DNA of 64,000 nucleotides from the IMG/VR virus record IMGVR_UViG_2703718819_000007. One strand, 5' to 3'. Positions 39,001 to 42,000 of the stretch are shown one piece after another (position 1 is the stretch's first letter; each line of letters opens with the position of its first letter). The DNA is from a virus (Duplodnaviria > Heunggongvirae > Uroviricota > Caudoviricetes). The position numbers were made by a program.

Positions 39001-42000
39001 TCAGGTTGTATCGTGAAATTAGTGACGGAAAAAGCATCACGTACATGATCGCCGGGTTAAACAAAGAATATGGCGATGTGGTGGAGTCCGGACTGCTTTT
39101 TGCTGATCCTGCCGTAGTGGATCGTGAAACTGACGAACTTATAGAAAAAGCAATTGCTTTCAAACTTGCGTATCGACAGCAATACCAACAAAAAGCTGGA
39201 TGGAATTATGAGCCTTCTTTTTGCTGAACGCCCACTGGTTATAAACACACAGCTTGCGATGAAGATTGGCTTAAATGAAGCCATTGTGTTGCAGCAGTTG
39301 CATTACTGGTTGAGAGATACCAATTCCGGTATGGAATGTGATGGTGTTCGCTGGATTTACAACACAACGGAACAATGGCTGGAACAGTTCCCATTCTGGT
39401 CAGAGTCAACGTTAAAGCGCGCGTTTGCAAGTCTGAAAACGCTGGGGCTTTTGCGTTGTGAAAAGCTCAATAAATCAAAGCGCGATATGACCAATTTCTA
39501 CACGATCAACTACGGGAGCGAGCTTTTAGATGATGGCAAATTGAGCGAATCCATCGGTTCAAAATGCGCCGCTCCATCAGGTCAAAATGACACGATGGAA
39601 GAGGTCAAAATGAAACGCTCCATTGGTTCAAAACGATCCAATGTCATCGGGTCAAAATGGCCTGATGATCTTACAGAGAATACAACAGAGATTACTACAG
39701 AGAATAAAAACACTTTTCGTCCGGAAGCTTCGCAACCGGACCCGCAGACGACTGAACAGGATTTTTTAACCCGGAACTCCGACGCGGTTGTGTTTAGTGC
39801 GAAAAAACGCCAGTGGGGTAGCAGGGAGGATTTGGCGTGTGCGCAGTGGATCTGGGGGCGGATCGTGGGCCTCTACGAACAGGCAGCCAGTGATGATGGC
39901 GAGATCATGAGACCAAAAGAGCCTAACTGGACTGTCTGGGCCAATGACGTGCGCACAATGCGGATGCTGGATGGCAGAAGCCACAGACAAATTTGCGAAA
40001 TGTTTGGTCGGGTTCAGCGAGATCCATTCTGGGTAAAAAACATCATGAGCCCGTCAAAGCTCCGCGAAAAATGGGACGAACTGGTCATCCGCCTGGGACG
40101 TTCACCTGTACAGCGTTGTGTTAATCATATTTCTGAACCGGATACAGAAATTCTGCCTGGTTTCAGAGGATAAGTGTTGATTTCAGGTCATGAGGTAATT
40201 TTAAGGGGGACTTGTGGCAAAAGTTTTTACACAAGAAGAGCGGGAAAAAATTAAAGGGCAGGTGGTGGAACTCGTGCGCCAGAGCGGTCGTGAGACGTTA
40301 CGGCAACTGGAAGCTAAAACAGGTGCGACTAGATATCTGATGAGCGTTCTTGCCAGAGAGCAGGTAGCCAGTGGCGATGTATACAACTCCGGCTACGGGT
40401 TATTCCCGTCTGAACAGGCGCGTAAGGACTGGCAAAACGCCCGCAAAAAACTCTCGAGGGCAAAGGTGAAGAAACCTGCTGTGGTTGATCCGGACCTTAT
40501 CTGGTCATTACCTGACGGAGAAATACGCCGCTACGACAGTCGTCTAAACATAATCTGTCGCGAGTGCCGGAAGAGCGAAGTTATGCAGCGTGTTCTGACG
40601 TTTTATCAGGGGAATTATCGGGAGGTGATGCTGTGAGTACATCGGCTACCATTCTCGACATGTGCTGTGGCAGTCGCATGCTCTGGTTCGATAAGAATGA
40701 CGAATGGTCGATATTTAGCGATATCAGGAAAGAGGAACATTCGCTATGTGATGGACGTCACCCGATTATTAATCCCGACATTATCGCTGATTTTCGTGCG
40801 CTGCCGTGGTTGTCTGCTTTGCATCAAAAGCAGACATTACCAGATTTAGACATCTGTTTCCGATAGCCCGTTCTGATGCTACACTTTTTGCTATTTTCAT
40901 GAACCTCATAAACACATTTATGACTGTTGCTGATTTCAAACGCCCCAAATTGGAGCTCCCAAACGGGGCAAAAAAACTATTACTGCACTCTTGCTGTGCT
41001 CCATGTTCCGGTGAAGTGATGGAGGCGCTTCAGGCCTCGGGAATCGACTACACCATCTTTTTCTACAACCCGAACATTCATCCTCAGAAAGAGTATTTAA
41101 TTCGTAAGGATGAGAATATTCGCTTTGCTAAACAACACGGCGTGCCATTTATTGATGCTGATTACGACACAGACAACTGGTTTGAGCGAGCCAAAGGAAT
41201 GGAATGGGAGCCTGAACGAGGGATCCGTTGTACCATGTGTTTTGACATGCGTTTTGAGCGGACTGCACTGTATGCCGCTGAAAATGGTTTCAGTGTGATC
41301 AGTAGCTCACTGGGCATTTCACGCTGGAAAAATATGCAGCAGGTTAACGACTGTGGACGGCGAGCCGTCGCGCATTATCCGGGCATGGTGTACTGGGATT
41401 ATAACTGGCGAAAACAGGGCGGCTCTTCCCGCATGATTGAAATCAGCAAGCGCGAACAATTCTATCAGCAGGAATATTGTGGCTGCGTGTATTCACTGCG
41501 CGATACCAATCTACACCGCAAATCTCAGGGACGCCCTCTAATCAAAATTGGTCAACTGCACTACGGTAAGGAAGGACAGGAATGATTTTATATTATGCCA
41601 ACGGAGCGTAGCAGTGTTTCTATATATAGTACGCCTACCTTAATTTTCAAATAATCATGATTAATGAGCAGGTCATCAGTGCAAGCAATGACCTGCTCAT
41701 CTTGTTGAAATTAGAGGAAATCTTGCAGCCATGATATGGCTTAAAATAACGTTTGATTATTTTACCTGCTGTTTGTCCCTGGTTTAAAGTCGGTTGTCTG
41801 ATTTGATTACGCGCAACTGACGCTTACGTATTGAAGTAACGAGCACGAAGACACATATTTATCAGTGCCTGTATACGTCAAGAGCAGGAGATTTATGTGC
41901 TGGTTCTCAAATGCACGCTGGCTATTGTGGCTGTAATGGCAATTTATTGTCTTGTTATTGTTCTTATGGATCACCTTTCTGATTGATTTCATATTGGCGA

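Follow-up and report, generated by a model that had tools for sequence, protein, structure and literature searches.

The closest described relative of the element reported here is the replication origin of bacteriophage lambda, whose iterons lie in the middle of the initiator gene O; there the initiator forms an O-some, the minimal unit consists of two iterons and the A+T-rich tract, and O binds the single-stranded DNA of that tract (PMC7466680). Lambda carries four annotated iterons (ATCCCTCAAAACGAGGGA and others), with palindromic arms around a CAAAACG or CAAATTG centre and spacings of 20, 24 and 23 nucleotides (nt); they are followed by a tract of 46 nt with 26% G+C and 57% A, and the whole origin corresponds to amino acids (aa) 117-160 of the 299 of O. 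Iterons are found inside the rep coding sequence of RepA_N plasmids as well. We analyzed a stretch of 64,000 nt (the window, here always meant at its full length) from the Caudoviricetes record IMGVR_UViG_2703718819_000007 of IMG/VR, and by analogy with lambda we consider that positions 39529-39716 are very probably the vegetative replication origin of a lambdoid prophage of the mEp460/HannyBb type, located inside its own initiator gene. The architecture is a known, lambda-like one, well preserved and ordinary for a specialist; what is of note is the fixed period of 23 nt, a set of ACAGAG 12-mers that is frozen across phyla and initiator families, and an initiator that has a DnaT-like tail and comes with no loader gene.

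The central part of this element is an array of direct repeats followed by an A+T-rich tract, whose components are the following:

39529..39551, plus strand: iteron 0, degenerate, GATGATGGCAAATTGAGCGAATC; orthologs carry GATGAGGTCAAAGTGAC
39552..39574, plus strand: iteron 1, CATCGGTTCAAAATGCGCCGCTC; frame offset 2; encodes SIGSK
39575..39597, plus strand: iteron 2, CATCAGGTCAAAATGACACGATG; frame offset 1; 8 of 11 dyad pairs
39598..39620, plus strand: iteron 3, GAAGAGGTCAAAATGAAACGCTC; frame offset 0
39621..39643, plus strand: iteron 4, CATTGGTTCAAAACGATCCAATG; frame offset 2; 8 of 11 dyad pairs
39645..39667, plus strand: iteron 5, CATCGGGTCAAAATGGCCTGATG; frame offset 2; 8 of 11 dyad pairs; adjoins the A+T-rich tract
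39668..39716, plus strand: A-rich, A+T-rich tract with three 12-nt ACAGAGAnTAC units, putative DNA-unwinding element

A repeat search recovered iterons 1 to 5 as a 23-nt unit repeated five times, the successive copies being 23, 23, 23 and 24 nt apart, and a period of 23 at 39550-39623 was reported independently by Tandem Repeats Finder. A sixth, degenerate copy (iteron 0) lies in register exactly 23 nt 5' of iteron 1, at a position where the orthologs have a better copy, so that the six-copy array has spacings of 23, 23, 23, 23 and 24 nt. The initial annotation had proposed five iterons at about 23 bp within the coding sequence of a putative initiator; the period is confirmed and so is the location, because all copies fall within the open reading frame (ORF) 39208-40173, which is O-like according to PHROG 391, while the count has to be raised to six with the degenerate copy at 39529. 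The core GKTCAAAAYG has five matches within 103 nt, all on one strand, and the only other match in the 64-kb window, at 25365, is unrelated; 0.73 matches are expected over both strands of the 64 kb, and none of 100 dinucleotide-preserving shuffles reached six. Moreover, every iteron, with a CATCnGGTCAAAATGACCnGATG-like consensus, is partly palindromic: 5-8 of its 11 possible pairs are complementary, and three copies reach 8 of 11, against a null of 2.75 +/- 1.47 and a frequency of only 0.15% for 8 pairs or more among the 23-mers of the window. An Rfam scan of 38300-40700 returned no RNA family.

The A+T-rich ACAGAGA stretch that the initial annotation placed after the iterons is there as described. 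It has three ACAGAGA units at intervals of 12 nt, beginning at 39673, 39685 and 39697 (Tandem Repeats Finder gives a period of 12 at 39673-39706), and the G+C content of 39668-39716 is 29%, versus 49% for the window. The 40-mer at 39671-39710 (28% G+C) is the least stable of the gene and belongs to the most unstable 0.9% of the window. The ACAGAGA heptamer itself is not enriched window-wide (9 found versus 6.7 expected), and it is only its local clustering that is unusual.

How far this arrangement extends was examined with related loci from a one-genome-per-species collection, which was used because an IMG/VR scan for related loci had returned only copies with 98-100% identity, of no use for covariation. 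Relatives of the N-terminal domain of the initiator were found in Enterobacterales, Pseudomonas, Acinetobacter, Comamonas, Campylobacterales, Bacillaceae, Staphylococcus, Limosilactobacillus, Lachnospiraceae and Chloroflexi-type metagenome-assembled genomes (MAGs), and most of them have 3-6 repeats at a spacing of 21-24 nt directly after the domain, and then 12-mers of the ACAGAGA type. The CAAAWTG centre of the repeats is constant and the palindromic arms differ by clade: GGTCAAAATGACC in the window, Klebsiella and Staphylococcus, GGGCAAATTGCCC in Pantoea and Pseudomonas, TGTTCAAAATGAACA in Bacillaceae, with GGACAAATTGTCC, GTGCAAAATGCAC, GGATCAAAATGATCC and TGGCCAAAATGGCCA as further clade types. 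A constant centre with changing arms is the pattern that would be expected of a co-evolving protein-DNA specificity. In this same collection, an N-terminal domain 100% identical to that of the Escherichia coli prophage is also found in MAGs under the names Veillonella parvula, Bacillota bacterium and Collinsella sp., and these identical sequences are probably due to binning contamination.

The association was also searched in the opposite direction, by scanning IMG/VR for the tract ACAGAGANTACNACAGAGA, which gave 108 non-redundant viral contigs. At least three copies of a 9-mer with a periodicity of about 23 nt are present within 200 nt upstream of the tract in 81 of them, versus 1 of 385 control segments, and the distribution of repeat spacings has a sharp peak at 23 nt. 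Associated with the ACAGAGAnTACnACAGAGA tract are 47 different iteron cores and initiator N-terminal domains of at least three kinds; the tract lies almost always about 130-200 codons into the gene and 3' of the repeats spaced by about 23 nt.

These data bear directly on the alternative that has most to be said for it, namely that the iterons are genuine initiator-binding sites with a regulatory function (autorepression, copy-number control by handcuffing, or a transcription roadblock) and that replication starts elsewhere. Plasmid iterons do have such roles, since they also mediate handcuffing and autoregulation. However, the array of the window adjoins the least stable DNA of the gene, which is the arrangement that unwinding requires in lambda (PMC7466680); the cores form no second cluster, and their lone other match in the window, at 25365, precedes the start of the HannyBb match (about 31965); and the pairing of iterons and tract is conserved across phyla. 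We therefore regard a purely regulatory array as improbable.

Slightly less probable still is the proposal that the tract is conserved mainly as a junction of homologous recombination, through which initiator modules are swapped, even if the iterons may bind the initiator. Similarity among the O genes is in fact modular: Klebsiella phages have the N-terminal domain, iterons and tract in common with the window (78% identity) and not the C-terminus, SfII-type phages have only the C-terminal part in common, and Shiga toxin (Stx) phages only the 40-nt tract, with 97.5% identity, so that the N-terminal domain and the iterons travel together with exchanges at the tract, a co-inheritance that also speaks for the origin. 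The breakpoints of similarity (query 514-553, 551-929 and 112-589) coincide exactly with the tract, and a tract that is near-identical is common to otherwise unrelated O genes, including those in which the N-terminal halves align weakly (21%) and the iterons are different. On the other hand, the tract is kept in phages of Staphylococcus, Bacillaceae and Campylobacterales, which cannot all exchange DNA with E. coli phages; within the gene it forms the thermodynamic minimum, and it is placed as the A+T-rich region of lambda is, and the roles in recombination and in unwinding are not exclusive.

The array could also be looked at as a coding sequence, because the initial annotation had allowed that the repeats might merely encode a repetitive peptide (SIGSK/VIGSK). 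The product of ORF 39208-40173 does contain SIGSK, SIGSK and VIGSK, derived from three copies in the same frame. However, a period of 23 nt is not a multiple of three and the copies consequently fall into different frames, with offsets of 0, 2, 1, 0, 2 and 2 for copies 0 to 5; all three reading frames are used, and the identical DNA core is translated as IGSK, SGQN or EVKM depending on the frame. Two of the five strong copies are thus read as PSGQN and EEVKM with the DNA core unchanged. In 13 Enterobacterales orthologs, pairwise identity at third codon positions averages 0.495 for the N-terminal domain, 0.849 for the ten-nt iteron cores and 0.947 for the tract, and the cores have no codon-position periodicity of conservation. 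Codon choice in the tract is frozen: at 35 loci, where the tract was located through its protein motif alone, threonine is encoded by ACA and glutamate by GAG in 99 cases out of 99, versus 23% ACA and 51% GAG in the same ORFs outside the tract. For the peptide that the repeats and the tract encode (aa 103-174), disorder is predicted, with a predicted local distance difference test (pLDDT) score of 22-26 in the AlphaFold2 (AF2) model, and therefore the protein would tolerate a DNA-driven sequence there. Finally, rare alleles of 290 aa have an exact in-frame deletion of 93 nt (23+23+23+24, or 31 codons; relative to 39552-39644) between iterons 1 and 5 and keep about two iterons, which indicates that the repeats recombine as DNA; four periods make a multiple of three thanks to the single 24-nt spacing. 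We conclude that the repeats are, as judged from their sequences, a DNA feature constrained as DNA. That they only encode a linker peptide (SIGSK/VIGSK and TENTTE) with no DNA function, for which the three same-frame copies and the Thr-Glu reading of the tract could be cited, is essentially excluded by the use of three frames, by third-codon conservation far above that of the folded domain, by the frozen codons, by the disorder of the linker, and by the retention of the period with 47 different cores coding for different peptides.

Several observations weigh against the assignment of 39529-39716 as the replication origin and have to be set beside this evidence. The ACAGAGA tract is read in one frame (Thr-Glu) in 137 of 141 occurrences, so that the frame alone leaves room for a peptide role of the tract, and its conservation could partly reflect the role as a recombination junction discussed above. 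The Mann-Whitney p-values for third-codon identity versus the N-terminal domain (3e-7 for the cores and 6e-8 for the tract) are optimistic, because kin sequences are treated as independent and the alignment is anchored on the repeats, although the effect is large. Four N-terminal homologs of Bacillus and Neobacillus (about 52-57% identity) have neither periodic repeats nor an ACAGAGA tract downstream; the domain is hence not always accompanied by an internal origin, and in these proteins it may have another role, or the origin may be elsewhere. DnaA boxes number 4 in the window, versus 5.7 expected, and they do not cluster near the origin. The initiator is not followed by a P, DnaC-like or helicase gene in the window (40174-44300), in HannyBb or in mEp460. 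Finally, protein binding, unwinding, helicase recruitment and autonomous replication are all things that we infer by analogy with lambda. As to the boxes themselves, a DnaA-dependent origin signature was considered and rejected, since they are neither enriched nor clustered near the origin.

The initiator gene and its parts are as follows:

39208..40173, plus strand: O-like replication initiator gene, 321 aa, containing the origin (PHROG 391, 'replication initiation O-like', E 2e-90)
39208..39510, plus strand: N-terminal winged-helix domain, aa 1-101, putative iteron-binding domain
39805..40089, plus strand: C-terminal domain, aa about 200-294, homologous to the C-terminal domain of lambda O (BLASTP)
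40111..40170, plus strand: C-terminal tail QRCVNHISEPDTEILPGFRG, resembling the last 20 residues of E. coli DnaT

The protein also matches PHROG 6493 ('DnaD-like helicase loader'), and it has no Pfam match at E <= 0.01 and no NCBIfam match, including the Phage_rep_O, RepA_N and DnaD models. A first AF2 run with the whole protein and 13 close homologs gave a pLDDT of 55 and weak Foldseek matches (E at least 0.098), and it was used only for the disordered linker; the N-terminal domain, modelled with 47 diverse homologs, reaches a pLDDT of 85 with a winged-helix topology. The predicted N-terminal fold is a winged helix of the RepA/DnaD type, like that of iteron-binding initiators. The origin corresponds to aa 108-170 of 321, in the linker-coding middle of the gene, and its predicted disordered segment is flanked by the winged-helix N-terminal domain and by the lambda-O-like C-terminal domain. 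By BLASTP only the C-terminal half aligns with lambda O (34% identity over 153 residues, E 3e-26), and the N-terminal domain has no detectable similarity to it.

At the end of the protein, the tail QRCVNHISEPDTEILPGFRG is identical to the tail of the E. coli primosomal protein DnaT at 13 of 20 positions (65%, pairwise E 1e-6), and a search of PDB sequences with the whole protein gave weak matches to the DnaT entries 2ru8 and 6aep; a match to YteR in the same search was spurious. Similar PxGFR tails are present at or near the C-terminus of homologs in Klebsiella, Pantoea and Hafnia phages. From its sequence, the DnaT-like tail may be a short docking motif for host proteins of replication restart or helicase loading; a published role for the DnaT C-terminal tail was not found in a literature search. 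The initiator family is a large one, with 4254 homologs at E < 1e-5, and the 120 matches listed among them are nearly all named 'hypothetical protein'; the only Pfam domains recorded among the matches listed, PF06254 and PF17761, belong to longer gene calls and lie outside the initiator itself. Thus a large family is left with no curated Pfam model and with its origin not annotated.

On the model of lambda, the module could work as follows. After induction, rightward early transcription from a pR-like promoter would provide the O-like protein, whose N-terminal winged-helix dimers would bind the six partly palindromic 23-nt iterons through the arms around the CAAAATG centre. Binding would wrap and bend the DNA into an O-some-like complex, and the resulting stress would open the adjacent ACAGAGA tract. 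The C-terminal part, with its lambda-O-like domain and DnaT-like tail, would then bring in the host helicase DnaB, probably through host DnaC and/or primosome proteins, a route that is proposed because the phage encodes no loader of the P or DnaC type. As a more speculative extension, which we hold only tentatively, the tract of ACAGAG 12-mers might be a sequence-specific element for unwinding or helicase loading, and the initiator might, in addition, need no phage-encoded loader because its DnaT-like tail (…SEPDTEILPGFRG) plugs directly into host DnaB/DnaC or the primosome; a sequence-specific role is suggested by the conservation of the tract across phyla, its presence with N-terminal domains of at least three kinds, and its constant coupling to iterons at a fixed spacing of about 23 nt. 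The signature composed of a winged-helix domain, 3-6 palindromic repeats spaced by about 23 nt, and ACAGAGA 12-mers could allow phage origins to be annotated automatically across phyla, and a loader-less initiator with a DnaT-like tail gives a clue to the way in which such phages obtain the helicase of the host.

The genes that surround the initiator are arranged as in a lambdoid early region:

38010..38468, minus strand: cI-like repressor gene (Pfam HTH_3), named 'transcriptional repressor' in phage HannyBb
38439..38468, plus strand: pR-like sigma-70 promoter candidate TTGACT-18-TAGCAT ahead of cro, weak evidence from a consensus scan only, in the position of lambda pR
38468..38722, plus strand: cro-like gene (Pfam P22_Cro, E 8.5e-17)
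38706..39227, plus strand: cII-like gene of the YdaT family (PHROG 163, E 2e-40; Pfam YdaT_toxin)
40214..40636, plus strand: DUF977/Ren-like gene in the position of lambda ren (Pfam DUF977, E 6.5e-29; PHROG 142)

The pR-like candidate would transcribe the cro, cII-like and O-like genes through the origin. The DUF977/Ren-like gene is not a helicase loader and is therefore unlikely to be needed when the origin is cloned. The prophage starts at about 31965 with an integrase gene, which is also where the HannyBb match in the window begins, and then includes Q, lysis, terminase, portal, head and tape-measure genes up to the window end. Two other genes of this prophage are worth recording: ORF 40806-41585, which matches Pfam QueH (epoxyqueuosine reductase, E 2.7e-65) over the full length and whose HannyBb counterpart is annotated only as hypothetical, and an 823-aa 'exonuclease' on the minus strand (33657-36128), annotated as RecE/exonuclease VIII-like in related phages, whose C-terminal domain matches the Pfam Rv2179c-like 3'-5' exoribonuclease (E 2.4e-67).

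The replication module is very probably intact. The initiator gene is full length, 99.3% identical to that of Escherichia phage HannyBb, which is annotated likewise, and 97.6% identical to that of mEp460_ev081; its 7 differences from the HannyBb gene are all outside 39529-39716, and hence the putative origin matches that of a deposited phage genome at 100% identity and induction should give replicating DNA. The suggestion of the initial annotation that the prophage retains a functional origin stays an inference. Moreover, NZ_CP081704.1, a circular E. coli 'plasmid' of 43.7 kb, is a complete phage genome in which the initiator homolog is the only recognisable replication gene. The 3-kb region containing the origin is 100% identical to the chromosome of an E. 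coli that produces Shiga toxin (STEC), and at least 80% of it is present in 593 of 5426 complete E. coli genomes; the probable integrity of the module is of consequence for prophage activity in those E. coli lineages.

Beyond the background on lambda and Stx phages, a literature search that was thin on subscription journals and classic reviews yielded no account of this iteron family or the ACAGAGA tract. The systems that can be compared share different parts of the module. Staphylococcal multiresistance plasmid RepA (PDB 4pta and 5kbj) and the N-terminal domains of DnaD and of Bacillus subtilis DnaB resemble the predicted winged-helix fold of the window protein; they differ, however, in that identity is only 12%, the window protein has no Pfam RepA_N match, they are plasmid and not phage proteins, and the C-terminal domains are unrelated. 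The 'DnaD domain protein' of Staphylococcus phage fPfSau02 is closer, with an N-terminal domain 52% identical, the same iteron core GGTCAAAATGAC, 85.5% DNA identity over about 60 nt and a CAGAGA-type tract inside the gene after the iterons, whereas its C-terminal half is annotated as DnaD and is not lambda-O-like, a replicative helicase gene follows, and the host is Gram-positive. The Rac prophage (ydaU-ydaV, with oriJ) offers a similar gene order, composed of a recE-type exonuclease, a repressor, ydaS/cro, ydaT, an initiator and DUF977, but YdaU is a DUF1376 protein and the next gene encodes YdaV, a putative ATP-binding protein; identity with Rac oriJ was rejected, because YdaU belongs to a different initiator family.

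Among Stx phages, those of the 933W/P27 type also have six iterons. The O gene of the Stx1_14040 type has an identical layout, with a tract 97.5% identical over 40 nt and iterons at spacings of 23 and 46 nt, although these are of the GGGAAACCC type, the N-terminal domain is different (21% identity, whole protein) and genes named 'DNA helicase' and 'replication protein' follow.

The comparison with lambda itself is the most informative. As in ori-lambda, the iterons are in the middle of the initiator gene, spaced by 20-24 nt, with dyad symmetry around CAAAAYG or CAAATTG, and an A-rich tract with 26-29% G+C lies downstream of them (PMC7466680); the relative position of the origin is also comparable (aa 117-160 of 299 in lambda, 108-170 of 321 in the window), the gene order is cI, cro, cII-like and O-like, and the C-terminal domains are homologous. 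Unlike in lambda, the N-terminal domain of the window protein shows no detectable sequence similarity to that of lambda O and does not match Pfam Phage_rep_O, the iteron arms are GGTCA/TGACC-like and not TCCCT/AGGGA, there is no P gene, the C-terminal tail is DnaT-like, and the tract is made of regular 12-nt ACAGAGA units. The statement of the initial annotation that the locus mirrors lambda O/ori holds, therefore, for layout, dyads, position and C-terminal homology, and does not hold for the N-terminal domain, which is not that of Pfam lambda O, or for the loader gene, which is missing. Because the N-terminal domain fails the Pfam test and no P gene is present, the locus is not a member of the lambda O/P family in the strict sense, despite the C-terminal homology; that homology and the common design of the iterons suggest, nonetheless, descent from the same kind of module as ori-lambda.

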